Source of the DNA: an uncultured Alphaproteobacteria bacterium | GTDB taxonomy: Bacteria; Pseudomonadota; Alphaproteobacteria; JALCBB01 | Direction of reading: 5' to 3' | Assembly (NCBI GenBank): GCA_958267355.1 | Contig: OY279575.1 | Location: 1,758,295 to 1,822,294 of the forward strand | DNA: 64,000 nt | Part shown: one piece after another, positions 1 through 15,762 of the stretch | Layout of the letters: every line of letters begins with the position of its first letter | Position numbering within the stretch: position 1 is the stretch's first letter | Made by a program: the position numbers and the translations under genes | The notes under the pieces: model-generated | Told to the model about the DNA's origin: nothing | The model's input: only the letters and a program-made list of their open reading frames with translations | Databases searched by the model: none

Positions 1-477
1 GGCGGATCCTTCGCCGCACCTCGCGACACCCGACCCGTCATCATCTCCAGTAACTCAGTGCCACCAGGAATGCTCATAGAAGTCAAAGGTGCCATCGTCA
101 CTCTAAAACACTCCTTCGGCGGCGATATCATCGTCGCAGGCGCAGGACAGCACTTCTTCGTCGCCGCCACAGGCCTACAACACGACATCTGCATACGACT
201 CGCAACCGAATCCACCGCCAAATCTTCTTCGGGTCTGCGCGGAGTCTACGTCGGACCCACAGGCAACTCCCTCACCGCCAATAGCGCCAACGTCAAACGA
301 ATAGAAGACGCCATCTCCAGTAACTCACGCGGCACTCTAGACTCCACCACAGGTAGCATCTTTATCCCGACCATACAAACTAGCGCAGGGCCAACCAACG
401 TGCCAATCGCTCCAAACTCAGCCGACCAAGCCTGCGGCAAAAACAACAACAGAATGATCGCATGGCTGTTGCAGTAA
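1..477 (+). CDS. Type IV pilin-like protein paralog, 5'-truncated by window edge (open frame runs from nt 1; listed ORF 58..477)
   Basis: C-terminal region aligns with the C-termini of the 2887..3582 and 3567..4304 products (HGMLIE.., D[IV]CI..LATE.., ..ACG.. with two Cys = pilin D-region-like). No stop codon between nt 1 and 58 in frame. Confidence 0.45.
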   Translation, partial: GGSFAAPRDTRPVIISSNSVPPGMLIEVKGAIVTLKHSFGGDIIVAGAGQHFFVAATGLQHDICIRLATESTAKSSSGLRGVYVGPTGNSLTANSANVKRIEDAISSNSRGTLDSTTGSIFIPTIQTSAGPTNVPIAPNSADQACGKNNNRMIAWLLQ

Positions 478-488
478 TGCCTATAATT

Positions 489-1650
489 ACCCTGATTTCT
501 AAGCCGCAAAAGAAAGGGTCAGGGTTAGTCTTTCTCGCAACATTTAATCCGCCCGCTTTTTACGCGCCCTTGCGGGCGCTTTTTGCTCGGCTTTACCCCC
601 CTCGCTTCGCTCGGGGTACGCCAAGCCCGCGGGCTCTTGCCGCCTACGGGGGCGTTCACTCACTTCGTTCGTGGATTGCCTTTCAGGCAATCGGCGTGAC
701 GCTTCGCGTCACGCCCCCACCCATCCCCCCCAAAGTTTGCTACGCAAACTTTGACCCCAGCTTTTTTACGGCGGCTTGCGCCGCCTTTTTGCACGGCTCG
801 GCAAGCTTCGCCACGCGTGCCCGCTCGGCACTTCGTGCCTTCGCGCCCCTAGGGGGGTGAATTATTAGATGTCCGTCTAAAAGAAAAAAAGAAAAGAGAA
901 TATAAGTCCAGCCCCTATGGGGGCGGCTAATTAATTAGCCGTGTTCTTAAAAGTAAAAGGGGTAAGGCTAGTTAAGCTTTGGGTGAATAGGAGGTTTCCC
1001 TGCGGGCAACTATTCTTTAATTCCCTCGCGGGCTTCGCCCGCGCTCCCACCCATCCCCCCCAAGCTCACTACGCCACCCTTTATGCACCCTTGCGGGTGC
1101 TTTGCACGGCTCGGCAAGCTCGCCGTGGCGGGCTTGTGAGCTTGACCCCAGCTTTTTTACGGCGGCTTGCGCCGCCTTTTTGCGTGGCTCGGCAAGCTTC
1201 GCCACGCGTGCCCGCTCGGCACTTCGTGCCTTCGCGCCCCTAGGGGGGTGTTAATTAGATAATCCCCTCTATATAAAAAAGTAAAACATAGGGAGAGGTA
1301 AAGAAAATAAAGGCAGAAAATTGAGATTAGTGGGATTAACTGGCTCCCATTTTTGAGACGAAGCCCTGTAAAAGCCTAGCCCGCTAGTGAGACAAAGACG
1401 GGGAAGTAGCGGCTTGCCCTGCAGGGGGCGAAGCCCCCGCAGGGTTTGCGCGATTGAGCGCAAACCGCGGGAGACTAACTTTAATAGGACTGCCCACGCC
1501 GCAGGTCGTCCGAAGGTACCGCGAAAACAAAGTTTTCGCGGTACGCGAACGGCGAGATGCGGCAAATAGCCCGCGCAAGCGGGCGGATTAAATGTTGCGA
1601 GAAAGACTAACCCCAACCCATTTTTCTACGGCTTAGAAATCAGGGTACTG
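489..1650. mobile_element. MITE-like non-coding composite element. Imperfect inverted copies (~65-75 bp) of repeat A (CCCTGATTTCTAAGCCGCA..GGGTYRGGGTTAGTCTTTCTCGCAACATTTAATCCGCCCGC) at 489-556 (+) and ~1575-1650 (-). The interior is GC-rich hairpins with TTGC/TAC loops, a ~110-bp internal duplication (745-858 ~ 1141-1250) and an AT-rich core.
   Basis: Direct sequence comparison of both ends. No credible ORF inside: the 462..860, 941..1243 and 1269..1616 ORFs are translations of repeats. Related A copies are at 17199 and 53561. Confidence 0.45.
562..586 (+). terminator. Rho-independent terminator-like hairpin (GCGCCC-TTGC-GGGCGC followed by TTTTT) just downstream of the truncated pilin paralog. 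Similar GGCGGC-TTGC-GCCGCC+TTTTT hairpins at ~768-792 and ~1167-1191.
   Basis: Perfect 6-bp GC stem, 4-nt loop, T5 tract read directly. Confidence 0.35.
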
Positions 1651-1739
1651 TGAAGACAGGGAAGAAGACAGGAAACCAAAGCGGGCGACTGCCCTCCTGT
1701 AAGGGGGGTAGGAGACAGCTTTGGCAATTAAGGGGGGGG

Positions 1740-2261
1740 CTATTTGAGTGGGAGAATAAGGCGGCGTTTGTACCTCTTGAGCCGAATAAAACCCGCACGA
1801 AGATAAAATTCTTCCACCTGCTCATCCAGCGCATCAACAACCAAGGCATAAGAAGCCGAGCCTTGGCTTAACCGCGTAGCTCTTCTTACAGCATTGGCAA
1901 GAAATTTTAACCCCATGCCCTTTCCTTGGATTGACCGCTCAAGGGCGAATTGTCCAAGCAGGGTTACAGGAACCTTTCGATCACGGGGCAATTTCTTACC
2001 CAATGCATCGGGTAGGGTGTCCGATTCAATGGACTCATTAGACAAAGTATAAAAACCAAGAATCGTTTGCGGATCATCTGTTGTCACGAGTACATAAACC
2101 CGCGCTAAGCCACGCTCTGCATCTTGGCGGGCAAGCCTTTTGAGGTAATGGTCCAACTTCTCATTGCCAGAGTTAAATTGGCTGCGGTCGTGACCTTTAC
2201 CAAATATCCGTACAACGGGCTGACCCTTTAAACCAAAATCGTTTAAGATTTCTCGTCCCAT
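1740..2261 (-). CDS. GNAT-family acetyltransferase, toxin-type (TacT/AtaT/KacT-like) of a type II TA pair
   Basis: 173 aa. Acetyl-CoA motif Q-G-K-G-M-G-L..LANAV. The gene starts within the 3' end of an upstream small ORF (19-nt overlap with 2243..2560), the typical TA architecture. Confidence 0.55.
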   Translation of the reverse strand: MGREILNDFGLKGQPVVRIFGKGHDRSQFNSGNEKLDHYLKRLARQDAERGLARVYVLVTTDDPQTILGFYTLSNESIESDTLPDALGKKLPRDRKVPVTLLGQFALERSIQGKGMGLKFLANAVRRATRLSQGSASYALVVDALDEQVEEFYLRAGFIRLKRYKRRLILPLK

Positions 2262-2560
2262 TCGCTGATAAACTGTCTGTCGTGGGCTTCAAGAGCAGCG
2301 GTAAGGGCTTCGTTGTAGACAATGGGCTCTTCCATCAGTCTCAAGAAAGCTTTCGTTTCTTCAGCGTCAAGTTTGGTTAAGTTGCGCTCCGAAAAACGCT
2401 TCTTGGCTCGCGGAAAAAGAAACCCCTTAATAACCCGCATAACAGGCCAGCGCGAAGTAACAAGATGGTAGTCCCAACGGGCGCGACGGTGGGCTTTGCG
2501 CTCTTTTTTCTCTTCTGCTTCCGCCTGTTTCTCCCAGGCGTTGTCTGTTGTGCTTACCAT
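2243..2560 (-). CDS. Putative DUF1778-like antitoxin partner of the GNAT toxin (start possibly at internal Met near 2440)
   Basis: C-terminal segment LTKLDAEETKAFLRLMEEPIVYNEALTAALEAHDRQF resembles the DUF1778 (TacA/AtaR) C-terminal toxin-binding region (..FLALLDNPP.PNEAL..A...). Translationally coupled to the GNAT gene. The N-terminal RHH region is not clearly recognisable. Confidence 0.4.
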   Translation of the reverse strand: MVSTTDNAWEKQAEAEEKKERKAHRRARWDYHLVTSRWPVMRVIKGFLFPRAKKRFSERNLTKLDAEETKAFLRLMEEPIVYNEALTAALEAHDRQFISEWDEKS

Positions 2561-2632
2561 TGTGGAAAAACTCCGTGTTGGGGTAGGGATAAGGCTAATT
2601 TAGGCGGAAGGCAGGAGGGGCGTCAATTTATT

Positions 2633-2800
2633 ACTTTATGTAGCTCAATTAGGCGTTTGGCTGAAATTATGGGGCTTGGGGGCTGGTGGGGGCTTGGCTC
2701 AATTAGCCCTTTGGCTGAAATTATGGGGCGTGGGGGCTGGTGGGGGATACAAGGGCTGGCACGAATGCCCCGCCGCAAGGCGGAATTCTTGCGGATTTGG
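2633..2800. repeat. Repeat-B family copy (two tandem sub-copies: GGCTCAATTAGSC..GAAATTATGGGGC..GGCTGGTGGGGG..GGCTGGCACGAATGCCSCRCCGCAAGGYG)
   Basis: Shares the GGCTCAATTAGCCC / ACTATGGGGCGTGGCGGTTGGAGG / GGCACGAATGCCGCACCGCAAGGTGC modules with 17430-17790 and 53836-53920. Contains two small tetraloop hairpins (GGCA-CGAA-TGCC, GCACC-GCAA-GGTGC). Confidence 0.5.
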
Positions 2801-2886
2801 GGGTTTGGTGGTAGAATTCAGGCGGTTGGGAATATCCGCCATTTTAGGCAGATTCTAGTGAAAATAAGCCTGTAAGCCAGATTTCC

Positions 2887-3582
2887 GTGAAAATGCAACT
2901 CTCTTCTATGCCTCTTATGCCTCTGCTCCGCAGAAAAGGCTCAAAGCCGCGTGGCTCACGCCGAGCAGGTGTCACGCTGCTCGAAGCCATCGGATTCCTT
3001 ACCGTCGCGACCATCATCATTGCCTCCACGCTCGGAATCTATGAACAAGCCCAGCTACAACTGCGAACCCACAGAACCATCACCGCTGTCGCCATGATGC
3101 ATACCATCGTACGCGGACTCTACGCCAATAGCGTAGAATTCGGCAAAAATATAGACGAAGATATGCACAATATTCTCGTAGATGCCAACGGTATCTCTCA
3201 CGGAATGCTAATAGAAGCCGCTGGAACCAATATGTACGAAATCCGTACCGCCTTCGGCGGACTCGTGCGACTCCGAGTCGGCTCGCGAACCGCCGCCGCC
3301 ACCACAGGAGGCGAAAAAATCAACTTCTTCATCGCCGCCGAAGACCTAGACACAGATGTTTGCATCAATATCTCAACCCAAGCTGTCGGTGCCGCTTTCT
3401 ATGGACTAAAATCTTTCCTCATCAATGATCAAGTCTTCCTACGCGGCACAGGTGGCGTAGATCCGCCCGCCTACACAGGCGCACCGCACTTTCCCGTTTC
3501 GCCCGCTCGTGCCTCCACGGAATGCACCACTTCTGGCGGGGGGATTAAACGCGATAATGTCCTGACTTGGAATTATCAATGA
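2887..3582 (+). CDS. Type IV pilin-like protein (prepilin-type N-terminal cleavage/methylation motif), 231 aa
   Basis: Basic leader ..RRKGSKPRGSRRAG|VTLLEAIGFLTVATIIIAS (Gly-1, Glu+5, ~20 hydrophobic residues). C-terminal D-x-C-I ... T-E-C-T Cys pair. Paralogous to the ORF at 1..477 and to 3567..4304. Confidence 0.65.
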   Translation: MKMQLSSMPLMPLLRRKGSKPRGSRRAGVTLLEAIGFLTVATIIIASTLGIYEQAQLQLRTHRTITAVAMMHTIVRGLYANSVEFGKNIDEDMHNILVDANGISHGMLIEAAGTNMYEIRTAFGGLVRLRVGSRTAAATTGGEKINFFIAAEDLDTDVCINISTQAVGAAFYGLKSFLINDQVFLRGTGGVDPPAYTGAPHFPVSPARASTECTTSGGGIKRDNVLTWNYQ

Positions 3583-4304
3583 TGGCGCAGACTCACTTTC
3601 ATAACCTTCATAGCGTCCGTGGCGTTCATAGCGTCTCGAGCAAGAAGCGGCAGGGCGTAACCCTGCTAGAGTTCATCGGTGTGCTTGTCGTTAGCATAAT
3701 CGTTATCTCTACTGCCATCGCTCTGCTGGATCATTTGGATAATCGTCGCCGCCTAAGCCAAGCCATAGATGGATACCAACTCCTCGCCCACAAAATAGAC
3801 AAGATAGATCTGCGCAACGTCTATCCAGACCCCACGGACCGCACCAAAAAGCTTTTCACAGACGCGGGCACAAAAGAACTTATCGGCTCCGCGAATTTTG
3901 TGCCGCCAGGGTTTTCCTACGAAATGGTCGGCACCGACCGCGTCTTCAAAGACCCCTTCGGCAATAGCATCGCCTTGCAGTCCGTGGATAAAACGCTCAG
4001 TGCCGCGACCCTAGCAAGTCCAGCACAGTGGCGGCACCTAGAACTCGCCATCACAAACGTCAAACAAGATATTTGCATACAGCTCGCCACCGAACTCAGC
4101 TGGGCAAATAACGCCCAACTCGCCGCCATTCTTGTTGAACATGGCGCAGGGCCTACCATCACAACCTTCACTCCCGCCACAGGAACGCTAAAACTCGACC
4201 CCGTGCCCGCGACAACCTTTCCGATACAAGCCTCCGCCGCCAACACAGCCTGCGGCACAAGCGGCAATACCCTACGCTGGCAGTTCGTCAAAGGTCCCGT
4301 ATAA
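3567..4304 (+). CDS. Type IV pilin-like protein, 245 aa
   Basis: ..KKRQG|VTLLEFIGVLVVSIIVISTAIALL N-terminus. C-terminal DICIQLATEL .. ACGTSGNTL motif shared with the two paralogs. Confidence 0.65.
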   Translation: MELSMMAQTHFHNLHSVRGVHSVSSKKRQGVTLLEFIGVLVVSIIVISTAIALLDHLDNRRRLSQAIDGYQLLAHKIDKIDLRNVYPDPTDRTKKLFTDAGTKELIGSANFVPPGFSYEMVGTDRVFKDPFGNSIALQSVDKTLSAATLASPAQWRHLELAITNVKQDICIQLATELSWANNAQLAAILVEHGAGPTITTFTPATGTLKLDPVPATTFPIQASAANTACGTSGNTLRWQFVKGPV

Positions 4305-4324
4305 TTTGCTATAATTGGCTCGTC

Positions 4325-4468
4325 CAAGAAAAGCTCAAGATAAAGCCCGAGAAAAACCCAAGATAAAGCCCAAGATAAAGCCCAAGAGAAAAACCCAAGA
4401 TAAAGCCCAAGAAAAACCCAAGATAAAGCCCAAGAAAAACCCAAGAGAAAAACCCAAGATAAAGCCCA
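4325..4468. repeat. Intergenic tandem repeat (11-13-bp units CCCAAGATAAAG / CCCAAGAAAAA) upstream of the 923-aa pilin-like gene
   Basis: Direct reading. The 4315..4512 ORF (KPKIKPK..) is merely its translation. Confidence 0.8.
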
Positions 4469-4474
4469 GACAAT

Positions 4475-7246
4475 ATGATCCACGCAAGCCCGCATATCGC
4501 AACTGTGCCTGACAATGTTTCAGGACATGGGGTTTCTGCGCCTTGGGTTTCTAAAGGGCGGGTTTCTGCGTGTCGGGTTTCTAAAGGGCGGGTTTCTAAA
4601 CGGCGGGGCTTGTCGCTGATAGAAGTTATCTTCGCCGCCGCCATCGCCGTTATTGGCTTGGCAATGTTCGTGCCGCTCCTTGCCGAGCGCGACGCCACAG
4701 AAGACCTGCATGTCACCGCCGAAATTATGCGCGCCCACGCCCGCACAGCTTCTAACCTTGCTGTCTCCGACCTGCCAATGTTCGGACGACCCAACGACCC
4801 GGGCAATCCGCTTGCCGCCACCACCGACGCAGATGGCGAGTCCGTTGTGGATGATATTAACTTCTTGCCATACTCGCTTCTGCGAGCTGTCCTGACCTGC
4901 ATGGATGCCTCAAGTAAAGCCCAATCAGGCGCACACAATATTCGCGAAGGCGTGCGTGAGTATCCGTCAGACGATGCCGCACTCGTGCTCTACAACGAAG
5001 ACAGAGTAGAACTGCCCGATGGCTCAGGGAATTACCACGAAAGTCTGCTCACCCTTGTCGCCCAAGGGCGTGCCCTAGACGCTGAACCCGCCGCCCGCAA
5101 CCGCGTGCTAACCGACGCCGCCCGCAGAAACCTAGACCGCTACGATTCAATTTGGCGACTCATGTCGTCTCATTGCACTTTCTTCTCCGCGCTGGACGGG
5201 AATAATAATCCTGACGCCGCCACCCTTGAAACCGACGAGCTGAAAATCGCTTGGTCAACGGGCGATGTCGTGCCAAGCGGAACAGGTGTCCAATATGGAA
5301 CCTTCCGTTGCGTAGATGCCGCCTATCTAGACGATCAAGGAAAAATCTGGACTCCAGGGTCGCCAAACCGTATTGACACGCCCGCCGTGCTGGTCGGAGG
5401 CGGTAGCGCCACTTCAGGGCGGGTGCGCTTCGTGGAAATCGATCCTGATACCTGCATCGGGGCGCGACTCCTTGCCGATGCCGCTGGCGGTATCCACTGG
5501 AAATCTTCGCTCGGGCTGGACGACCAAGGAAACGACGCTCGCGTCGCCTTCTACATCGGGTTTGAAGACGCCGATAGAGCCATAGAAGCCGCCATCCAAC
5601 TCGGCAATGGCGGACAAGTCGCCGATACCTTCGCTAACATCTCCGTCGACTCAGCCTACAAGCTCAAGGTCTATGTCGTGCCTCTGCGCTATAGCGCACA
5701 AGCCCACGCCGCACCACTGGCACGGAAAATCGGACCGTCAGCCCTAATCGCGTCTCGCGGGGATTATCACTCGTCGTCTCCGTCACCGCGTCCAAGTGCG
5801 CCCATTGCCTTTCGGAATCCGTTCAGCCAGACACCCATCAGAAACACTTTTATTCCGTGGCCGTTGAAAGATCCGACTGCTTCCAGTCCAGAGCTTTTAA
5901 TCCGCGAGAATGCAGTGGTTATAGACTCGGCAAACTTTGAAAGCAGAACCGCCAACGCTTGGCTCGCCAGCTTTGTCGGCGAGCGGCGGTCTTCTGAAGC
6001 ATCGGGAATTCCCGCCAATGCGATTACCCTCGGGCACTCGGTCTATCACACGACCAATCAGTCGGGCAACGCAGTCGCGGCACGGACTCTACGCAACGAA
6101 GATAACCGCTACGATATTTCAGGCTTCTCCACGCACTTAGCAGGACACGGAAAGCGTCTGATGGATGGCGACACAGCAGGTTTGGGAACTGCAAACCTGC
6201 CGCCACGGAATAATCCTGCCCGCAAGCCGCCAAACGTTGATGCTACCGCGCTTCCCTTGTCGGCGGGTTTGCTCATCGGCACGGCTATGACCAATGCAAC
6301 CGATCTTCATGTAGGCACTACAGGTGGAAACTTGTGGCGCAAGTTTGGTGTTCAAACTGCGGCAGAAGGCCCAAACAATGTCTCGCGCCTCTGGCCACGC
6401 CTTTTGGATGTCGGCTCCGAGCATGAGCCTGTGAGAAGGCTCACAATCCGCGATGATGCAGTCTTCTCGCAGTTGCGGGTGGAACCCGGGGCGCAGGTGC
6501 GGGTGCTTGGCAGAATCGCAGTCGGGGTTTCGTGCGAAGAGTTGGCGGGAGCTTCCAAAGGCTTAGGTGCTGCCCTTACGCAAAAACAAATCGGACAATT
6601 AGAAGGCGAGACAGCTGCGTCGCGAAATCCTGCTCTGGCAAACCCATCCCCTGTTTTAAGTTCGGTTGCCAATCGCTATTCGCCCCTCTGCCACGATGGT
6701 CGCAGCCCCAGCACGACTCCTTCTGCTACGGTTGCCGATGCCGCACCGCAAGCCGCCGAAGTTTCTGCCAATCTTCCCTATCGCGGCTTCTATATGCAAC
6801 CGCACAATAGAGACATTGATTTGGGAACCCACTTCTCCGTCTATACGCGGCAGATTCAGGTTGAAGACGGGGCGGCTTTGGCACTAAGTGTGCGCAAACC
6901 GAACCCCTTCGGTACTGGCGATGTAACAGGTGTGACAGATACCACGGACCACAATATCTTCAAGTACAAAGACTGCCTTTTGGATGACGAAGGCGACTCG
7001 CCAGGTATACCAGGAACGCCGACCAATACGTGGGCTAAAGACCCAGATACTATAACCATCGGCGGCCTCGAATATGATGGTACTAAGGTAGGCAACTTCC
7101 AGATTGCGCGGGGTGCTCCAGAACCTGTTGCGAATAGAGACCCCTTCATACATTCATCAAGAACCCTTACAAGACCCTCCACTGGTGCTTTAAATCCCCC
7201 AGGAGTCATAAGTGGTGTTAAAGAACAAAATGTCTGCCCTAACTAA
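4475..7246 (+). CDS. Giant pilin-like (pseudopilin-like) protein, 923 aa, with prepilin-type N-terminus after an unusually long basic leader
   Basis: ..VSKRRG|LSLIEVIFAAAIAVIGLAMFVPLL. The leader (~45 aa) contains in-frame 15-bp tandem repeats (GGGTTTCTAAAGGGC x4-5 at ~4520-4595). The rest has no domain I recognise. Overlaps the next gene by 35 nt. Confidence 0.55.
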   Translation: MIHASPHIATVPDNVSGHGVSAPWVSKGRVSACRVSKGRVSKRRGLSLIEVIFAAAIAVIGLAMFVPLLAERDATEDLHVTAEIMRAHARTASNLAVSDLPMFGRPNDPGNPLAATTDADGESVVDDINFLPYSLLRAVLTCMDASSKAQSGAHNIREGVREYPSDDAALVLYNEDRVELPDGSGNYHESLLTLVAQGRALDAEPAARNRVLTDAARRNLDRYDSIWRLMSSHCTFFSALDGNNNPDAATLETDELKIAWSTGDVVPSGTGVQYGTFRCVDAAYLDDQGKIWTPGSPNRIDTPAVLVGGGSATSGRVRFVEIDPDTCIGARLLADAAGGIHWKSSLGLDDQGNDARVAFYIGFEDADRAIEAAIQLGNGGQVADTFANISVDSAYKLKVYVVPLRYSAQAHAAPLARKIGPSALIASRGDYHSSSPSPRPSAPIAFRNPFSQTPIRNTFIPWPLKDPTASSPELLIRENAVVIDSANFESRTANAWLASFVGERRSSEASGIPANAITLGHSVYHTTNQSGNAVAARTLRNEDNRYDISGFSTHLAGHGKRLMDGDTAGLGTANLPPRNNPARKPPNVDATALPLSAGLLIGTAMTNATDLHVGTTGGNLWRKFGVQTAAEGPNNVSRLWPRLLDVGSEHEPVRRLTIRDDAVFSQLRVEPGAQVRVLGRIAVGVSCEELAGASKGLGAALTQKQIGQLEGETAASRNPALANPSPVLSSVANRYSPLCHDGRSPSTTPSATVADAAPQAAEVSANLPYRGFYMQPHNRDIDLGTHFSVYTRQIQVEDGAALALSVRKPNPFGTGDVTGVTDTTDHNIFKYKDCLLDDEGDSPGIPGTPTNTWAKDPDTITIGGLEYDGTKVGNFQIARGAPEPVANRDPFIHSSRTLTRPSTGALNPPGVISGVKEQNVCPN

Positions 7247-9098
7247 TCTCGCGTCTCGCACTTCTGGTGCGTCCGCCCATCGCGTGGATGGCTACATCTG
7301 CGGCAACGGGCAAGCCCCGCATTGCACCCGTACTCGCCGCTCCCGCAGGGGCTTCTCCCGCAGGGGCTTCACCATGTTGGAAGTACTAGGCGCCTTGGCA
7401 ATTGCCTCCATTATGTTGGTAACCCTAACTTGGGTTCAGCTCGGCGGAGCCGCTTCCTACTCAGAGCGTGTAGATGAACGCCGCGCCCAATACATCGCCA
7501 GCGTTATGCGACAGGTCTTTGAAGCCGAACGCGGACGCGTACTCAACGATTACCAAGAACACAGCTTCCTCGCACATATGGGCTTAAACGGCGAGGCAAC
7601 AACTCTGCCCGACGAGCAAATCTACGACCCCACCGACCCCAATGGCGGTGCAGCAGGTGTCGCAGTCGGCTTAAACGGAAATAACATTGATGATTTTGAA
7701 GAACTCGTCCCGCGCTCAGGAGTCAATTTCTCAGCCCGCCGCGAAGGCGCAACTTCACCGCGTGAAATCCAACCCACAGGAGCAACGCTGGCAAGCCAAG
7801 GCTATATGCCGCTCGGACACTCCACAGGGCTAGACCCACAGGCTCTAGGCGAAGCCGCAGGCGCACCCCTGCCCCTCAGTATCTATTACGGACGGATTCG
7901 CCCCGATGCCCTCGTCAGCGGACTCTGCGAACCAGGCGTAAGCACAGTCAATAGCGATGGCGCAGGTGCCTCTGGCAAATGCAAAGCCGAAACCTACGCA
8001 CATAGCACAGGACGCGCAGGAGCAAATGTTTTTAGTGACACAACCATAGATCCCGAATTTGGATATGTGCCAGCAAATAACCCAGGAGCAATCACACCAC
8101 TGGGTATTTCTATGCGCCTAACTGCAGCTGTTGATGCAGGGTGCGCCTCTGTCTCGGTTGTCTGCGCAGACCAGATGGTCTTCCCGTTCTTGGGCTACTA
8201 CGGCACCCAAGGAACAAGCAAAAAAGTCGTCGTCACAGACGACACAGCATTAGCCATCGTCGTCAAAACCAACTTCACAAGCGCACAAATTCCAAGCGAA
8301 CGAGTCTTGCGACGGGTAGCAGAATTGCTCGCCCCCTACGGCGGCTACGGCTTACACAGCGACCACAGCTCAGAAGCCCTAGCATACTACGCCTGCCTAC
8401 CCCACATGACCGACTTTGAAGGCACGCGCAATGGCTTCTGCAGCTCAACGCCGCCGAACATCTATAAGCCCTCCAACACGCCAACCGAAAGCGCAATCGT
8501 CGGCGGCAGATTGGCATGGCGATACCTCGCTAAAGAATTACCCCTGCGCGATGCAGGGAAAACCCTTTTCTCCACAACCGATTCCGCCACGCCACCAACG
8601 CCGCAGACAGCAACAATTTCTACAGCCCACCCCCTGCAGGTGCAAGGACAACTCTTTATGGTCGGACTCTTCGGGCGACGCAATTCCGTTCAACACGCAC
8701 TGGAAGTCGCCAGCTTTGACGCCCTATCAGAAGAAGGAGACGGACCCACACTCTACTTCAGCGGCGATGGCGGCTTCGTAGATGCTCCCACAAGCGAAGT
8801 CGACTCAGGCGAAGTCGCAGGACGCAACATCGGATTCGTCTTCAGCCAAGATGTCACCATTGAAGGGGATCTGGTCGTCCAAAGCGACGCCGTTATCGCC
8901 GCCCCCGCCCGTGTGCTCATCCCCGACGCAGAACTAGACCTAGAAGGCGGCGCATTCTTCGCAGGAAGACCACACGGCAACGCGGCTTTCCGTAGAGACG
9001 AAATCTACCCCTTCCCCAACATCTATGTCACAGGCGGTGTAAACGGAAACCTGCCCAACTACGACGCCCGCATACGCCTAGAGTTTTTGGCTGACTAA
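7212..9098 (+). CDS. Giant pilin-like protein, 628 aa (start may be Met at ~7230)
   Basis: ..TRRSRRGFSRRG|FTMLEVLGALAIASIMLVTLTWV, i.e. Gly-1/Glu+5 followed by a hydrophobic helix. Confidence 0.55.
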   Translation: MVLKNKMSALTNLASRTSGASAHRVDGYICGNGQAPHCTRTRRSRRGFSRRGFTMLEVLGALAIASIMLVTLTWVQLGGAASYSERVDERRAQYIASVMRQVFEAERGRVLNDYQEHSFLAHMGLNGEATTLPDEQIYDPTDPNGGAAGVAVGLNGNNIDDFEELVPRSGVNFSARREGATSPREIQPTGATLASQGYMPLGHSTGLDPQALGEAAGAPLPLSIYYGRIRPDALVSGLCEPGVSTVNSDGAGASGKCKAETYAHSTGRAGANVFSDTTIDPEFGYVPANNPGAITPLGISMRLTAAVDAGCASVSVVCADQMVFPFLGYYGTQGTSKKVVVTDDTALAIVVKTNFTSAQIPSERVLRRVAELLAPYGGYGLHSDHSSEALAYYACLPHMTDFEGTRNGFCSSTPPNIYKPSNTPTESAIVGGRLAWRYLAKELPLRDAGKTLFSTTDSATPPTPQTATISTAHPLQVQGQLFMVGLFGRRNSVQHALEVASFDALSEEGDGPTLYFSGDGGFVDAPTSEVDSGEVAGRNIGFVFSQDVTIEGDLVVQSDAVIAAPARVLIPDAELDLEGGAFFAGRPHGNAAFRRDEIYPFPNIYVTGGVNGNLPNYDARIRLEFLAD

Positions 9099-9113
9099 CC
9101 GCCGATAAACAAA

Positions 9114-10604
9114 ATGACCCATCGCAAAAATACCCACGCCCGCCCGCCCGCCGCACCACGCAAACGCCGCGGCTTCTCAGCCATTGAGGCGATGGGTGCT
9201 GTCACCATCGGAGTCGTCTTTATCGCTCTCGCGGTTGGTATCCTCGCCGACCAGAGGGAACGCGAACGCGCCAGCGTACTCGCCGCCGATCTCGCCCTCG
9301 CCCTAGAAGGCGGCGAAAATTATCTGCGCGCCAACCTAGAAATCTTCTCACAAGACAATGACGAACTCGGCGTCGCCGCCACCCAAAGCCAACGCAAAGC
9401 ACAGGAAATCTGCCTGTCCGATATGGTGGCAGGGGATTACATCCCCAGCCATCTCTTCAGAGATAACGGCACAACAACGCCCTTCGGCTTGCGGATCCAT
9501 GTCTCCGCCGCCCGCCTAGAAAACGCCAACACCGAAAAACTCGGCAAACCAGACCTCTACGCAATCGTCGCCTTCACACAAGGCGATACAGCCCTATTCT
9601 CCAATAAAGCCCTCCTCACCACCGCCGAACACCTCGGCGACAAAGGCGGATACGGCACCGACACCAATAGCGGACGCTCCTTCATCGGGTGGGGAACAGG
9701 CTACGCCAACAACGCACTCAACCAAGACGCACCCACCACCACACCCGCCAACACAGGGCCGCTATGGCAATTCAGTGGCACCCCCGCCGCTTCTGACTTT
9801 CCTGTCGTCGCCACGCTCGGCTCCTGCGCAACCCTAACCCCAACCAACCCAACCATCAATATGACAGGACAAGCCGTCGCTGTCGCCTTCGTCACCGTCT
9901 ATCCGCCAAGCAAAATCGCCGCCCTAGAAATCTTAGAAAAACAAACCCTAACCACAGACGAATTCCGTGCCGCCGCCGCCGTAGAAGTCATACGCGAAAA
10001 TGTACGCGCATACCTCCCCACCGACGCCACAGACGAATATATCTCAGGCTGTGGCACCACCACAGTACGCATGAAACGCTTCGCAGGCGCAGACCCAGCC
10101 CAAACCTTCCAAACCTTCCCCGTCTTCTCAGGCGTGGGCAGTACTACCATCTCCAGAGATCTCAACGCCTCTGCAGTAGAGCATTTCTGCTACAACGGAA
10201 ACTATGTCGTCCCCAACCCGCATATGGCACGACTGCAAGTCAGCAACATCAACGCCCACACCATAGAAGCAATGCGACTCGTCATCACAGGCAATAACGG
10301 AATCCTAAAAGTCAAAGGCGACCTGAAAACACCCGCCCTGCGCATAGACGCAAACGAACTGCTCGTAGACAGAATGGTCTTCAATGAAGGCGTAAAATCA
10401 AGACGCTTCAACCAAAATGGCGCCTACGGCTTCGCACAACCCCTCAATAACCTCTACATCAATAACCGTCCGCGAGTCGCCTATGTCTGCGGCTATCGTA
10501 GCCCCACCGCCACCTCCGATGTCTCCGTTAGCAGCGGCTCTGCGCTGGGATTAGGTAGCGTGCCAACAGCCACAGCCTGCGCAAGCCCCTTAGGCTCCAA
10601 CTAA
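9114..10604 (+). CDS. Large pilin-like protein, 496 aa
   Basis: MTHRKNTHARPPAAPRKRRG|FSAIEAMGAVTIGVVFIALAVGIL. Confidence 0.55.
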   Translation: MTHRKNTHARPPAAPRKRRGFSAIEAMGAVTIGVVFIALAVGILADQRERERASVLAADLALALEGGENYLRANLEIFSQDNDELGVAATQSQRKAQEICLSDMVAGDYIPSHLFRDNGTTTPFGLRIHVSAARLENANTEKLGKPDLYAIVAFTQGDTALFSNKALLTTAEHLGDKGGYGTDTNSGRSFIGWGTGYANNALNQDAPTTTPANTGPLWQFSGTPAASDFPVVATLGSCATLTPTNPTINMTGQAVAVAFVTVYPPSKIAALEILEKQTLTTDEFRAAAAVEVIRENVRAYLPTDATDEYISGCGTTTVRMKRFAGADPAQTFQTFPVFSGVGSTTISRDLNASAVEHFCYNGNYVVPNPHMARLQVSNINAHTIEAMRLVITGNNGILKVKGDLKTPALRIDANELLVDRMVFNEGVKSRRFNQNGAYGFAQPLNNLYINNRPRVAYVCGYRSPTATSDVSVSSGSALGLGSVPTATACASPLGSN

Positions 10605-10639
10605 GCCCGCAAAAATAACACCGCACCACAACGCACAAC

Positions 10640-10760
10640 GCCGCAACGCTACATCATCGCATCGCTACAACGCTACATCGCTACAACGCTACATCGCTAC
10701 ATCGCTACATCATCGCAACGCTACATCGCTACATCGCCGCAACAACGCCGCAACGCTAAA
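10640..10760. repeat. Octanucleotide tandem repeat (CGCTACAT / CGCTACAA, ~10 units) ending ~30 bp upstream of the 10789 GTG start
   Basis: Direct reading. Unit length 8 is not a multiple of 3. Confidence 0.8.
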
Positions 10761-10788
10761 CCACCACCGCTAAACCAGAGATCCAGCC

Positions 10789-12603
10789 GTGTACCCCTTC
10801 ATCGTCTTCGCCATCTTCGCCTTCGCCATCGCCGCCGCATGGCACGACATGGCCTTTGACGCCGCCAGCGAAGCGCGACTCAATAAACAACAATCCCAAG
10901 CCCAAAACTTCGCAAACTTCGCCGTTGCACTACACGAAGCCGTAGCCACTCCGTTCTTTGACCACGACGAAGATGTAGCCACCGCCCCCGTACGCGCCTT
11001 CGCCTTCTCACGCGACTTCATCGCCCACAGCCAAGGCGGAAAAATCATCTACGACGAACGCAAACACGCCATCACCAACAAAAATATCGCCGACAATCCA
11101 ACCACCACAACCGCCTACACCGAATACGCAAACCTCTTTCAAGACTTTCTCCGCGACCTGCGGAAAAGCTCCGCCACCGCCGCGCAAGCCCCTCTCACCA
11201 ACACCGCCAGCCCCGCCTACCTAGCAGAAACCGACGAATTCGCCCGCAAAGCCCCCATAGAAGGACTCATACAAACCCTCTTCGGATGCTCGTCCTACGC
11301 AACCCCAGGACTCTCAATCTCAGCAGGAGACCCCGCCCAAAGCTCCAGCCAACTCTGCGGCTTCAACACAAAAGCCGCCGCCGCCGACACCAACACAGGC
11401 GGACCCGCCGCAGGACGATACGGATACGCAATCGCAACCCACATCCTGCCCTGGGCAGATGGCTTAACCATACGAGCCGTCGCAGGGGATCCGCCAACCC
11501 TCAGCTACACTCCAACCCCCACCCTAAGCGACCCCACCCAACTAACCGAATACAGCGCAAAAATCATCTCCCGATACGACCCCAAATCAGGAACCAACGC
11601 CGAACGCGCCACCGCCATAAATGACAAACTGCTAGAACTCTACCAAGAATACGAAACCGCCAACGCCCAACTACGCAAATTCAGAGCCGTACGCCGCGAC
11701 ACACTCTTCAACGCACGGCAAAAACTCCGCCTGCCCGAAGGCGTCTATGTACGCGCCTGGCTCGGATGCACCCTAGAAGGCGGAATCAACGCCGCCAACG
11801 CCCTCGCCACAGACCCCAACTTCAGCACCATACCCGACGATGTCTACTCCGCCTCAAGCTACGACGAAGGCGAAAGCGCAAACTATCGCCGCCGCGTACA
11901 ACGACTCTGCGGCGCAACCAAAACCACCAACCCCCTCGCCCTCATCGTCTGGCTAGAAACCGAAGACGGAAGCGGCGGACCCACAGGACAAATCATCGGA
12001 TTAGACGAAGGCGCAGTCCATGCCGAACTGCAAAAACTCCTGCCCGCCACAACCCGACTGCGCTTCGGCATCGGCAGAATGACCTCAGTCGTAGACCCCA
12101 ATATACCAACATCCACCACATTCCTCAGAACCGTAGCCGACCTAACCCCAGCCTCGCCAACAGGCGCCAACCGCAGAGGCATACACCAAACCGTAGACCA
12201 ACCCGCCGCCGGCTTAGGACGCGCCCAACTGCTCGGATTTCCCACACCCGACGGCACACCCAGAGGAATCCTGCCACGCCAAGACTTCGCCGCCATCGTA
12301 GAAACAGGACTCACCGCCAACCTGCCTCTGCGCTTCACATCCCGAGTCAGCGGCAGCAACACCTTCTATGACGGCAGACCCGAAGCCCCGCTCGCCTTCT
12401 ATTCAGTCTTCCCCATCGCCGAAGGCTTTGACGCCACCGACACCGCCTTCAGACCCTCACCAGACCCGCAAGTCGTCTCAAACGAAAGCGCATGCAGTGG
12501 CGGCGCAAGCGGCTGGATGTTCCAAGAAAACTCAGTCGCAACTAGACGACTCTGCATAGACCTATCAGCAGCTAGCTTCACAGATCTCCAAGACCAACCC
12601 TAA
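10789..12603 (+). CDS. Signal-anchored protein of the pilin-like cluster, 604 aa, GTG start (no canonical G-x4-E motif)
   Basis: N-terminal uncleaved-type hydrophobic segment YPFIVFAIFAFAIAAAW followed by a soluble Thr/Pro/Ala-rich body. In-frame stop 6 codons upstream fixes the start region. Same strand and spacing as the upstream pilin-like genes. Confidence 0.45.
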   Translation: MYPFIVFAIFAFAIAAAWHDMAFDAASEARLNKQQSQAQNFANFAVALHEAVATPFFDHDEDVATAPVRAFAFSRDFIAHSQGGKIIYDERKHAITNKNIADNPTTTTAYTEYANLFQDFLRDLRKSSATAAQAPLTNTASPAYLAETDEFARKAPIEGLIQTLFGCSSYATPGLSISAGDPAQSSSQLCGFNTKAAAADTNTGGPAAGRYGYAIATHILPWADGLTIRAVAGDPPTLSYTPTPTLSDPTQLTEYSAKIISRYDPKSGTNAERATAINDKLLELYQEYETANAQLRKFRAVRRDTLFNARQKLRLPEGVYVRAWLGCTLEGGINAANALATDPNFSTIPDDVYSASSYDEGESANYRRRVQRLCGATKTTNPLALIVWLETEDGSGGPTGQIIGLDEGAVHAELQKLLPATTRLRFGIGRMTSVVDPNIPTSTTFLRTVADLTPASPTGANRRGIHQTVDQPAAGLGRAQLLGFPTPDGTPRGILPRQDFAAIVETGLTANLPLRFTSRVSGSNTFYDGRPEAPLAFYSVFPIAEGFDATDTAFRPSPDPQVVSNESACSGGASGWMFQENSVATRRLCIDLSAASFTDLQDQP

Positions 12604-12779
12604 CCGCACAGGTTCATCCGTCAGGTCGTGGGGTGTAGGTCGTAAGTTGTGGATTGTAACTTGTAATTCGCTAAACCGCCCAAGGCAAGTCAGCTAGTCG
12701 CAATCCGCCAAACCGCCCGATGCAAGTCAGCTAGCCGCACACCCCAAGTTGTAAGTCTAAAGTTGTAAGTCGTAACGAA

Positions 12780-14879
12780 GTGACGAACTTCTCCTTCGTT
12801 TTTGCGCCGCTCCTGCCCGTCGCGCTCATCGCGACACTCGCCGCCGTCGCCCTCATCGCGCTCCTGCCCGCAAGCCTCGCCCGCGCCCGCGGCACCAGCC
12901 TGCGACTCGCCTTCTTCGCCCTTCTGCTCTTCGCTCTGCTCGGGCCCACCCTAGAACAACAAAGTCAGGAAACCCTGCCCACCATCGCACTCGCCATCTT
13001 AGACCGCTCCGCCAGCCAAACCATCGGCGCACGCGAAGCCCAAACCAATCAAGCCCTCGCCGCACTCACCTCCGCCGCCGAGCGAATCAACGCCGAGCTC
13101 ATCATCGCCGAAACCCCACGCTCAGCCGAATCAACCCAACTCCTTTCAACCCTCGCCAGCGAACTACCACGACTCAACCCACAACAACTCGGCGCAGTCT
13201 TCTTAATCAGCGACGGACAAGCCCACGACACAGAAATCAAACCCAACCTTGCCGCCCCCGTCCATCTGCTGCTCACAGGCTCAGCACAAGACCAAGACCG
13301 CTCTCTAGAACTCATACAAACCCCACGTTTCGGACTCCTCGCCCGCGAAACCCAAGTCAAAGTCTCAGTACAAAGCCGCGGTAAAGGCGAAAGCTCCGTG
13401 CCCGTCTCGCTCAAACTCAACGGCGAAGTCTTGCAAAGGCTTCAACTCTCCGCCAACCAAGAACACACGCTATCGTTCAAACTCACACGCCGCGGCGAAA
13501 ACTTCGTAGAGCTAGAAACGCCAAGCTCCGCCGATGAAATGACAGAAGCCAACAACCAAGTCGGCTTCGTCATCAACGGCATTCGCGACCGCCTGCGCGT
13601 GCTCATCATCTCAGGACACCCCCACGCAGGACAACGCGCCTGGCGCGATCTGCTCAAATCAGATCCCGCCGTAGATCTGGTGCACTTTAATATTTTGCGC
13701 GAACGCGAAGACGATGTACGCGCCAATGTTGAAGAACTGTCGCTTATTGCTTTTCCTGTTGATCAACTCTTCTTGGAAGACTTAGATGGTTTTGACCTCA
13801 TCATCTTTGATAGATACTTCTTACGCGGACATCTACGCGCCCCGCACCTAGATGCTGTCGCCAACTTTGTTCTCGCGGGCGGGGCGTTGCTCGCGGTCGC
13901 GGGCGAAGAATTTTCAGGGCCTGGCACTTTGTACAACGGAGTCTTCACCTCTGTCTTAGCCGCGCAACCTGTCGGCGAAATTCGCCGTGCCGCCTTTCGT
14001 CCGACCCGAACCGAGCTGGGCTTGCGCCATCCCGTCACCGCCAAGCTCAACGAAACCGCGAACCGCCCGTGGGGGCAGTGGTACCGCCGCAATCGCGTCC
14101 TGCCCGCCCAAAACGATAGCCCCGTGCTCCTCGCCGCCGAAAACGAACCCCTGCTCATACTCGCCCGAACAGGGCAGGGACGCTCGGCACTTCTCGCCAG
14201 CGACCAAATCTGGCTCTGGGCCCGCGGCCACGACGGCGGCGGACCCGAAGCCGACCTGCTACGGCGACTCGTCCATTGGCTCATGCGCGAACCCGAGCTG
14301 GAAGAAGAACGACTCCTGCTCAAAGCCGAAGACAACCAAATCACCGTAGAACGCCGCTCTTTATATCCCGTAGAAGGCAATGCCGCTGTCGTGCAACTCA
14401 CCGCTCCCAACGGCACGCCGCAAGAAATCACCCTACAAACCGTAGAAGACCAAACAGGCGGACGCGCCATCGCCAAGCTCAACAACGCCGCCGAAGGCTT
14501 CTGGCGTGCCACCCAAACCATCACCCACACAGCAGGGCAGGGCAACGCCAACCAAAAAGAAATACTAGAAGCCTTCGCACTCGTCGGACGAAACCTACAA
14601 CGCGAATTCGCCACGCCCTTTTCTACGCCCGAACTTTTGCGTCCGTTGGTTAATCAAACAGGCGGCTCAGTACTACGGCTAGAAGAACATCCAGAACCAC
14701 GCCTGCGGCGTATCCGTAGCCAAACTTCAGCAGGCGGACGCGGCGATTGGCTCGCAGTTTTAGATAAACGCGCCACCCGAACCCTAAATACCGAAGTCAT
14801 CCCGCTTCTGCCCGCCCCGCTGGTCGCCGCTCTTCTGCTGGCTCTTCTGCTCTTCGCTTGGCGGCGGGAATCACGCTAA
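12780..14879 (+). CDS. Membrane protein with N-terminal double-transmembrane (two_anch-type) domain, central class-I glutamine-amidotransferase-like fold and C-terminal TM anchor (Bat/DUF4159-related family), 699 aa, GTG start
   Basis: N-terminus F-x-x-P-L-L-P..LIALLP pattern. ..DLVHFNIL..FDLIIFDRYFLRGH..LAGGALLAVAGEE.. block. C-terminal LLPAPLVAALLLALLLFAWRR. In other alphaproteobacteria this family normally sits with MoxR/DUF58/vWA genes, which are absent here. Confidence 0.5.
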   Translation: MTNFSFVFAPLLPVALIATLAAVALIALLPASLARARGTSLRLAFFALLLFALLGPTLEQQSQETLPTIALAILDRSASQTIGAREAQTNQALAALTSAAERINAELIIAETPRSAESTQLLSTLASELPRLNPQQLGAVFLISDGQAHDTEIKPNLAAPVHLLLTGSAQDQDRSLELIQTPRFGLLARETQVKVSVQSRGKGESSVPVSLKLNGEVLQRLQLSANQEHTLSFKLTRRGENFVELETPSSADEMTEANNQVGFVINGIRDRLRVLIISGHPHAGQRAWRDLLKSDPAVDLVHFNILREREDDVRANVEELSLIAFPVDQLFLEDLDGFDLIIFDRYFLRGHLRAPHLDAVANFVLAGGALLAVAGEEFSGPGTLYNGVFTSVLAAQPVGEIRRAAFRPTRTELGLRHPVTAKLNETANRPWGQWYRRNRVLPAQNDSPVLLAAENEPLLILARTGQGRSALLASDQIWLWARGHDGGGPEADLLRRLVHWLMREPELEEERLLLKAEDNQITVERRSLYPVEGNAAVVQLTAPNGTPQEITLQTVEDQTGGRAIAKLNNAAEGFWRATQTITHTAGQGNANQKEILEAFALVGRNLQREFATPFSTPELLRPLVNQTGGSVLRLEEHPEPRLRRIRSQTSAGGRGDWLAVLDKRATRTLNTEVIPLLPAPLVAALLLALLLFAWRRESR

Positions 14880-14949
14880 CACACACAAAACATCTAAAAC
14901 ACTAAAACATCTAGAACACTAAAACGCCTAACAACGATGGCGGCAAGGC

Positions 14950-15549: not shown

Positions 15550-15762
15550 CGCCCAAAAAAAGCCCGTCAAAAGAAGCTTGTCATAAGAAGTCTGTCAAGG
15601 GAAGTCGGGCGCAAAAACTCCCAGCAGGAAACGCGTTCAGGAAACACACCCAAGAAATACATCTAGGAAACGCGCCCAGGAAATACACCCAAGGAACGAG
15701 AAATACGCCCAGGAAATACATCCAAGAAACGCACCGCGCAAACCCCGCCCTTTCATTATATA

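Follow-up and report, generated by a model that had tools for sequence, protein, structure and literature searches.

What kind of system is encoded by the run of prepilin-like genes at the left end of this stretch of DNA, and what are its unusually large members for? The stretch (hereafter the window) comprises 64,000 nucleotides (nt) of contig OY279575.1 from an uncultured alphaproteobacterium, and its genes were taken from a listing of open reading frames (ORFs) with their translations. The proteins considered are lettered A to H in the order of their genes (Table 1), and the lengths and common strand that a preliminary description of the window had given for B to H agree with this listing. 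Window positions 1-12603 are, with good probability, the distal, pilin-encoding half of a chromosomal locus of ~28 kb for a type IVb pilus (T4bP) in a circular genome of ~1.86 Mb. The T4b machine of this locus is ordinary, and it is accompanied by three major-pilin paralogs, five minor-pilin-like genes (B to F) and a hypervariable partner (G). The machine and the major pilins are of a known kind; what is new is the block of five pilin-like genes, with the three giant and unrelated orphan bodies of D, E and F, and the hypervariable partner. A more tentative reading, to which we give somewhat less than an even chance, is that a heteromeric complex of the five minor pilins, with D, E and F as giant modular pilins of folds that databases do not yet contain, primes and caps this pilus. 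Joined by the variable G, it would constitute a large organelle for host recognition that is specific to this lineage, in function the T4b counterpart of the T4a HIJK-PilY1 complex but made from unrelated parts.

Machine genes, major pilins and the type of the pilus

The assembly machine is encoded upstream of the window. A stretch of the window's own contig (L015, whose positions minus 17593 give those of the window) extends from the upstream region into the window and carries, in order, genes for IalB, argG, a TcpQ-family protein, a secretin, PAP_PilO, a protein of 189 amino acids (aa), a T2SSE ATPase, a T2SSF platform protein and two pilins of 248 and 279 aa. These are followed by a few hypothetical genes, a toxin-antitoxin (TA) pair of the GNAT/DUF1778-like kind, pilin A, a second TA pair and B. 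The genes from TcpQ to the platform protein lie 8.2-15 kb upstream of window nt 1 and belong to the same locus. The Pfam matches to TcpQ (54.2 bits), Secretin (62.8 bits) and PAP_PilO (27.3 bits, cut-off 26.7) are all above their cut-offs, while the 189-aa protein was taken as PilP by position alone. In one relative (L002) the best NCBIfam match of the secretin is TIGR02520, the PilN type IVB family (2e-62), at 211 bits and under the equivalog cut-off of 288. The preliminary description had reported that the window holds no assembly ATPase, platform protein, secretin or prepilin peptidase. This is true of the 64 kb and is caused by the position of the window edge, as ATPase, secretin and platform protein were all recovered by looking upstream of nt 1, where no PilD-type peptidase was found within 17.6 kb. 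No retraction ATPase was observed in the locus. A circular metagenome contig of 1,859,045 bp (ERZ19433661 hifiasm.ptg000096c) encodes a protein identical to D.

A search with the ATPase gave matches mostly on plasmids (3,553 records), 2,551 of those being predicted conjugative, mostly enterobacterial. The best-scoring alphaproteobacterial match was a plasmid of Bosea sp. RAC05, on which the gene order is TcpQ-family protein, secretin, PilO2, hypothetical protein, ATPase, platform protein, PilT-like ATPase, hypothetical protein and PilV. The TcpQ, secretin, PilO, ATPase and platform proteins of our locus are 28-36% identical to their Bosea plasmid counterparts (33-36% for ATPase and platform protein), and tblastn of PilO against plasmids gave no match. 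By its gene order and sequence signatures, the system is a type IVb pilus of the R64/PAPI-1 kind and not a new class of filament. The preliminary description had suggested an undescribed type IV filament, which is contradicted by the R64/PAPI-1-type order of the machine genes on the same contig and by the type IVb pilins. A new class might be read from the five pilin-like genes and G that follow the major pilins, from the bodies of D, E and F, which are essentially without relatives, from the very long leaders (up to 52 aa as read) and from a cluster that includes neither a peptidase nor PilV. We consider it very improbable, as every machine part that was found bears a T4bP signature (TcpQ, a PilN-type secretin, PAP_PilO, and an ATPase and platform protein resembling those of a PilO2/PilV cluster), the order is the same, and the pilins have the type IVb fold. 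An ordinary operon with homologs of standard length, which had also been envisaged, describes the machine but not D, E and F, as these are neither GspH-K, Msh or PilV homologs nor of normal length.

The plasmid relatives also bear on whether the locus makes a thin pilus for conjugation or mating-pair formation (R64/IncI PilS-PilV or PAPI-1), carried on an integrated mobile element and using D, E and F as recipient-recognition adhesins. Both the gene order and the closest annotated relatives, including the plasmid ATPase records, are those of T4bP on plasmids or integrative and conjugative elements (ICEs), and the Bosea cluster carries PilV. Moreover, the pilin array contains inserted TA pairs, repeats resembling miniature inverted-repeat transposable elements (MITEs) and, in a sister species, an inserted restriction-modification gene. 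However, the locus sits between argG/IalB on one side and H, DUF1178, ABC1 and TrcR on the other and not on a conjugative plasmid or ICE, and gene calling from IalB/argG to the housekeeping genes gave no relaxase, type IV secretion system, integrase or shufflon recombinase. B to G are without similarity to PilV: BLASTP of these proteins against the Bosea PilV gave none, and no PilV family match was above its cut-off. The chromosomal site is also fixed, being after argG in L002, L008 and L015 and beside H in L010, L011 and L019, even though the pilus proteins are 29-37% identical. Retention of one site at such divergence argues for long vertical inheritance, and a conjugation pilus is quite improbable.

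Pilin A, which had been recognised as a third pilin paralog cut by the window edge, is complete on the source contig (259 aa, L015 17291-18070), where it starts 302 nt before the window; its motif is G|VTFIE with the glycine at residue 44. The A-type pilins, of 248, 279 and 259 aa, have as-read leaders of 11, 32 and 44 aa and a valine at position +1, in keeping with type IVb major pilins, whose leaders are longer than those of T4a pilins and whose residue at +1 is not phenylalanine. Their mature N-termini are identical at 37-38 of the first 40 residues, and their heads are ~45% identical with two conserved cysteines. A profile built from 33 pilin sequences matched the structures of PilS (1q5f, 1.1e-5) and BfpA (1zwt, 9.3e-5). 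An AlphaFold2 model of P0001, a protein 97% identical to pilin A, has a mean predicted local distance difference test score (pLDDT) of 79.6, and the ten best Foldseek matches of this model in the PDB are all type IVb pilins (TcpA, PilS, CofA). By sequence profile and predicted fold, therefore, the A-type pilins are type IVb. Recent gene conversion was considered for the near-identical alpha1 helices of the three pilins and rejected, since the nucleotide identity over this region is just 71-82%, which indicates that the protein identity is maintained by selection. We regard the three as candidate major subunits, their sequences being those of variants that may be able to co-assemble.

The conserved block B to G and its giant pilin-like proteins

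The five consecutive genes B to F had been singled out for their prepilin motifs, and this observation is borne out. When the 64 kb were translated in six frames and searched for the pattern G[FMLVIA][TS].[ILVMF]E with a run of 14 or more hydrophobic or small residues after it, five matches were found, one at the N-terminus of each of these proteins, and 200 shuffled sequences gave none. The glycine at position -1 is residue 28 in B, 30 in C, 45 in D, 52 in E and 20 in F, and the motif of both B and C is G|VTLLE. All five proteins show the pattern of a class III signal peptide, with a leader ending in glycine, a hydrophobic helix and glutamate at position +5. In addition, E passes the cut-off of TIGR02532 (19.3 against 16.3 bits) while D fails it (11.9 bits) and no other window protein passes, and an E homolog (P0038) is named by NCBI as a prepilin-type N-terminal cleavage/methylation domain protein. 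The small proteins B and C, which had been described as pilin-sized with cysteine pairs, keep these pairs (159/213 in B and 170/229 in C) in the pilin alignment, and in Pfam B weakly matches PilS (E 0.0046) and Bundlin (E 0.03). Read as 231 aa, B has no exact database record because gene callers place its start later. We noticed that the leaders of D and E carry in-frame tandem repeats of 15/30 nt (RVSKG... and RRGFSRRGF, window 4530-4607 and 7340-7370), and that the D leader of the sister species has a still longer repeat of the SGRAS type. The leaders of D and E appear to be free to expand.

The order B-C-D-E-F-G was observed to be conserved downstream of the machine genes, at 29-60% identity, in the sister species from the same sample (L011, L012) and in two distant lineages of metagenome-assembled genomes that are 29-37% identical (L002/L019 and L010). 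B orthologs occupy the same position in L002, L010 and L011 (39-75% identity), and those of C lie immediately 5' of the D gene in every relative. The D orthologs of L011, L012, L010 and L002 have 910-974 aa at 32-54% identity, and all eight cysteines of mature D are invariant (8/8). E orthologs have 437-607 aa, with three of six cysteines invariant and long invariant motifs such as GRIRPDAL, VTDDT and PYGG, while F orthologs have 441-530 aa and two invariant cysteines. The ratios of nonsynonymous to synonymous substitution rates (dN/dS), computed against the sister species and rough because dS is near saturation, are 0.27 for D, 0.19 for E and 0.42 for F, within a range of 0.19-0.42 for B to F; G has the highest value of the set (0.63), and H and the housekeeping gene ABC1 have 0.11. 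These patterns of conservation characterise D, E and F as extracytoplasmic proteins that are functional and evolve fast.

The bodies of D, E and F had been called unassignable to any domain, and our searches agree. Pfam and NCBIfam gave no body domain in D to F, with only N_methyl-type matches among D, E, F, G and their orthologs, apart from a sub-threshold match of the D ortholog to DUF7927 and a BT_3987-like match in the longest G homolog. Searches of the PDB gave nothing meaningful with the single sequences of B, D, E and F and no match with profiles of the D, E and F families. Among pseudopilin families (GspH-K, FimU/PilVWX, MshO/P/Q) none matched over a body: matches to PilV, GspH and GspI were seen for the E protein alone, with E-values of 0.005-0.12, far under the cut-offs and within the N-terminal helix (residues 46-110). 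We also considered D, E and F as paralogs in their bodies and rejected this, as hhalign between the three families found similarity limited to the first 60-75 residues, that is, leader and alpha1.

Relatives of D, E and F are rare, and none was detected beyond a few uncultured Alphaproteobacteria. For E, a search of 5.8e9 clustered proteins returned eight relatives, an exhaustive profile search with HMMER returned nine among 1.84e9 representatives, and the E profile found a single species representative in 185,579 GTDB species genomes. One of the more distant relatives (L020, Logan SRR33616140_2573, 64% GC) encodes a 1080-aa E-like pilin directly followed by an F-like pilin of >1286 aa. Large size is thus characteristic of the families of D, E and F, and with 923-974 aa for D here and >1286 aa in L020 they rank with the longest pilin-like proteins noted so far. 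The C-terminal extensions of the 1080-aa E relative and of another of 1012 aa were tested as fused F, D or G, and they are not.

Protein G, which had been described as a 604-aa signal-anchored protein after the giant pilins, is listed as such and is without a prepilin motif. Its first ~80 residues, a hydrophobic segment and then a helix, are conserved in relatives that are 26-31% identical overall, and its counterparts have 571 aa (L011), 1129 aa (L019/L002) and 2119 aa (L010). The 2119-aa counterpart contains a BT_3987-like Ig-type domain (E 1e-8), and a sequence search of the PDB with this homolog gave nothing meaningful. A Pfam scan found no PilY1 beta-propeller signature in G. G was also tried as a leaderless pilin, and this was rejected as hhalign of its N-terminus against pilins gave no similarity. 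With its conserved N-terminus and variable body, G is probably either an adhesin associated with the tip or an effector that is exported.

Export of G is the core of another explanation, in which the locus is a secretion device like the type II secretion system (T2SS), with B to F as a short pseudopilus or priming complex and G as the exported substrate, comparable to TcpF and CofJ, which are exported by T4bP (PMC10191384, PMC8179133). G would fit such a role in having no prepilin motif, in being always last in the block and the fastest evolving of its members, and in its range of 571-2119 aa; by inspection its N-terminus can be read as a Sec signal peptide ending AAA|W. This explanation is unlikely on balance. 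Three PilS-like major-pilin paralogs of the type IVb fold are retained, which argues for a real filament, and conservation as seen in the first ~80 residues of G, hydrophobic segment included, would be uncommon in a cleaved signal peptide and fits a dock or anchor better. The secretion and tip-adhesin readings are, moreover, mutually compatible.

In the tip-complex reading, the class III signal peptides of B to F would direct these proteins into the inner membrane, and a prepilin peptidase whose gene lies elsewhere in the genome would cleave them. By way of their alpha1 helices, which bear E5, B to F may then come together on the platform in a heteromeric complex that primes assembly and stays at the tip of the pilus. 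Its analogues would be the TcpB/CofB trimer in other T4bP and the HIJK complex in type IVa pili (T4aP) and the T2SS. D, E and F would be 'modular' pilins with large disulfide-rich bodies displayed at the tip, although their modular architecture is inferred from size only. G could dock by its conserved N-terminal ~80 residues and present its length-variable, fast-evolving adhesin or effector part, while A-type pilins would polymerise beneath the tip complex. The bodies of D, E and F, together with the docked G, would provide ligand or host binding. By analogy, the role is likely to be attachment to or colonisation of a host. The locus would be a candidate host-attachment organelle in an alphaproteobacterial lineage with reduced genomes whose relatives come partly from sponge metagenomes; a literature search on this lineage and on T4b pili in sponge symbionts returned nothing relevant. 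The preliminary description had spoken of a minor-pilin/tip-adhesin module, which remains the best reading for B to G, while H, which it had included, lies outside the module.

Several observations weigh against this reading. The N_methyl family of Pfam (PF07963) scores C, D, E and F at 14.8-19.2 bits, under its cut-off of 21.2 bits (E-values 0.021 for C, 0.0038 for D and 0.0015 for F), and has no match for B, so that the expectation that the N-termini would match prepilin models is supported by E with TIGR02532 and not by PF07963. An A24 prepilin peptidase was not found in the window or in the 17.6 kb upstream of it (82 kb in total), and processing of B to F is therefore assumed and not demonstrated. 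Because the bodies of D to F match no family or structure, their tip location, complex formation and adhesin function are proposed on analogy alone. Confidence in the AlphaFold2 model of E, computed from an alignment of eight sequences (pLDDT 33.7), is limited to the helix at residues 55-116. The link of G with the pilins consists of conserved gene order and nothing further, and the dN/dS values are, as said, rough. Described T4bP have one to three minor pilins as compared with five here. Finally, in one strain contig that is 97-99% identical (L007 14792-17564) two ORFs (363 and 522 aa) are called in place of D, the sign of a frameshift or of an error in assembly near codon 329.

The split D gene also touches on whether the locus is a decaying remnant in a reduced, repeat-ridden genome that no longer makes a pilus, which we hold to be the least probable of the readings considered. 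Besides D, the machine genes are fragmented in one alternate contig, and repeats, TA insertions and low-complexity leaders are abundant. Yet the source contig and several others carry all the genes intact, every gene has a dN/dS below 1, several cysteines and motifs of D, E and F are invariant across deep divergence, and synteny is kept.

Neighbouring genes, repeats and inserted elements

Table 1. Features of the pilus locus and its right-hand boundary within the window (positions in nt of the window).
Feature	Position	Strand	Description
Pilin A, 3' part (158 C-terminal codons)	1..477	+	PilS-like type IVb pilin, third major-pilin-type paralog
Probable TA pair (173 aa + 105 aa)	1740..2560	-	Diverged duplicate of the GNAT/DUF1778-like pair upstream of pilin A
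Pilin B, 231 aa (224 by gene callers)	2887..3582	+	Small PilS-like pilin, conserved first member of the minor-pilin block
Pilin C, 245 aa (241 by gene callers)	3567..4304	+	Second small minor pilin
Tandem repeat of 12-nt unit, ~12 copies	4324..4468	.	C-D spacer; copy number strain-variable
D, giant pilin-like, 923 aa	4475..7246	+	45-aa leader, G|LSLIE, ~880-aa body of unknown fold
E, giant pilin-like, 628 aa	7212..9098	+	52-aa leader, G|FTMLE, lineage-specific body
F, large pilin-like, 496 aa	9114..10604	+	20-aa leader, G|FSAIE
G, signal-anchored, 604 aa	10789..12603	+	No prepilin motif; probable tip-associated adhesin or effector
H, membrane protein, 699 aa	12780..14879	+	Two N-terminal transmembrane helices, GATase1-like middle, C-terminal transmembrane helix

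B and C overlap by 16 nt and D and E by 35 nt, E and F are 15 nt apart, and the C-D, F-G and G-H spacers have 170-184 nt. The remaining genes of the window are alphaproteobacterial housekeeping genes, namely DUF1178, ABC1, TrcR, COQ9, miaB-phoH-ybeY-corC-lnt and metK, as well as rimP-nusA-infB, pnp, fabA/B/I and aroK/B. No tRNA or Rfam match was found in the 64-kb window. Some of the housekeeping proteins exceed the length of their Pfam domains by apparent low-complexity extensions (TrcR 331 aa, Fur 256 aa and YbeY 287 aa). Between window positions 8000 and 20000, across E to H and the genes that follow, the + strand shows a GC skew of -0.2 to -0.33 (excess of C) and an AT skew of +0.13 to +0.32 (excess of A).

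H is the chromosomal boundary of the pilus locus, a housekeeping neighbour outside the system. It has >7,900 full-length homologs at ~40% identity across the Alphaproteobacteria (Azospirillum, Roseovarius and others), and its dN/dS is the same as that of ABC1. In Roseovarius the H ortholog is the fourth gene of a MoxR-DUF58-BatA/DUF4159 operon, and in L010 H is on the opposite strand, after an unrelated ORF. These observations remove H from the module in which it had been placed. Its description as a 'double-TM + GATase1-like' protein holds in part. The two N-terminal transmembrane helices are seen by inspection, and the match to PF07090 (GATase1_like) is sub-threshold at 19.5 bits (cut-off 27), many full-length homologs carrying PF07090 in their precomputed annotation. 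H has no match to PF07584 (BatA) or TIGR02226 at E<=1, and in Roseovarius BatA/DUF4159 is a separate gene upstream. A search of genome contigs with H as a single protein found nothing. The usual partners of this family had been reported missing, and indeed MoxR and DUF58 are absent beside H in the window, L011 and L019, and no vWA gene is next to it in the window. Compared with the alphaproteobacterial MoxR-DUF58-BatA/DUF4159-'GATase1-like' operon, H is the ortholog of the fourth and last gene, and the three upstream partners are not adjacent here. The pilus locus occupies the place where these partners would lie.

The tandem repeat in the C-D spacer has the unit CCAAGATAAAGC. Gene C ends with two TATAAT boxes, the array begins just downstream of them and precedes the ATG of D, and a promoter-like site lies at 4277-4305 (10/12 matches). 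In an alignment of five strain contigs the flanks are identical, and the array is markedly shorter, by 73-84 nt, in the four others from the same sample. This repeat is a candidate source of variation in the level or phase of D expression. Other tandem repeats were observed at window 10628-10754, 12665-12739, 14883-14925 and 15641-15729, with units of 8, 24, 37, 17 and 13 nt; they fill the F-G, G-H and H-DUF1178 spacers and surround the start of the ABC1 gene. The spacer repeats seem to be a general habit of this genome and not specific to the pilus.

Two pairs of a GNAT toxin and a DUF1778-like antitoxin flank pilin A, one in the window (1740-2560, - strand) and one upstream (L015 16152-16954). 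The window copy is ~75% identical in nt to the copy at L001 4085-4887, and it has no Pfam match at E<=1e-4, while the upstream copy matches Acetyltransf_7 (1.4e-7). The probable TA pair at 1740-2560 is an inserted passenger and not a component of the pilus. Pilin A and the TA pairs are surrounded by families of direct and inverted repeats of 109-119 nt that resemble repetitive extragenic palindromic (REP) elements or MITEs (window ~480-1700, which is L001 6014-7221, and L001 3150-4035), and spurious ORFs within them share peptide strings such as ISKPQKKG...LVFLATFNPP. Furthermore, a type IIG/MmeI-like restriction-modification gene (~1,060 aa) is found in or next to the pilin array at L006 10811-15619, L011 688-3876 and L004 3346-6513, an insertion seen in the sister species and another relative. 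The pilin array appears to be a hotspot of insertion.

Comparison with known systems

The closest known systems are the pili of R64/IncI1 and PAPI-1, which share with our locus the order of TcpQ-family protein, lipoprotein-type PilN secretin, PilO, small protein, ATPase, platform protein and pilins, the pilins being PilS-like. In contrast to these, our locus is part of a chromosome, has been inherited vertically and has no conjugation genes in its vicinity. Its major pilin exists as three paralogs, and B to F together with G replace the single PilV. The cluster is without a PilV homolog, a shufflon, a PilT-like second ATPase, a peptidase and a transglycosylase, and no recombinase was called in the locus. 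In having no retraction ATPase the locus resembles the toxin-coregulated pilus (TCP).

The tips of T4bP carry large minor pilins such as CofB and TcpB and can present a secreted partner, for example CofJ (PMC10191384, PMC8179133). In the CFA/III pilus of enterotoxigenic Escherichia coli (CofB) and the TCP of Vibrio cholerae (TcpB), the gene of a large modular E5-bearing minor pilin lies next to that of the major pilin. This minor pilin primes assembly and is located at the tip, and a non-pilin partner (CofJ, TcpF) is displayed or exported (PMC8179133, PMC10191384). D, E and F are without sequence similarity to any PDB chain, CofB and TcpB included. Where those pili use a homotrimer of one minor pilin, our locus encodes three different giants (to 923-974 aa, and >1286 aa in L020) and two small ones. 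F, at 496 aa, is close to CofB in size.

Modular pilins are widespread, and in these a class III signal peptide and alpha1 are joined to a bulky part that is thought to be exposed at the tip and to bind ligands (PMC8179133). This tempers the surprise at D, E and F. PilB and PilC of Streptococcus sanguinis and ComZ of Thermus are built in this way (PMC8179133). For the additional parts of D, E and F, no known domain was matched.

According to reviews, minor pilins are fewer in T4bP than in T4aP (PMC10191384), and the gene layout of our locus recalls the latter. The tips of T4aP and of the T2SS (PilHIJK/FimU-PilVWX with PilY1/PilC, and GspH-I-J-K) are likewise encoded by four or five co-transcribed pilin-like genes and then a large non-pilin protein. 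There is no family-level match to them, and the machine here is T4b and neither T4a nor T2SS. If the tip-complex reading is true, T4b tips can be as elaborate as those of T4aP and the T2SS, and D, E and F would add new folds to the modular pilins.

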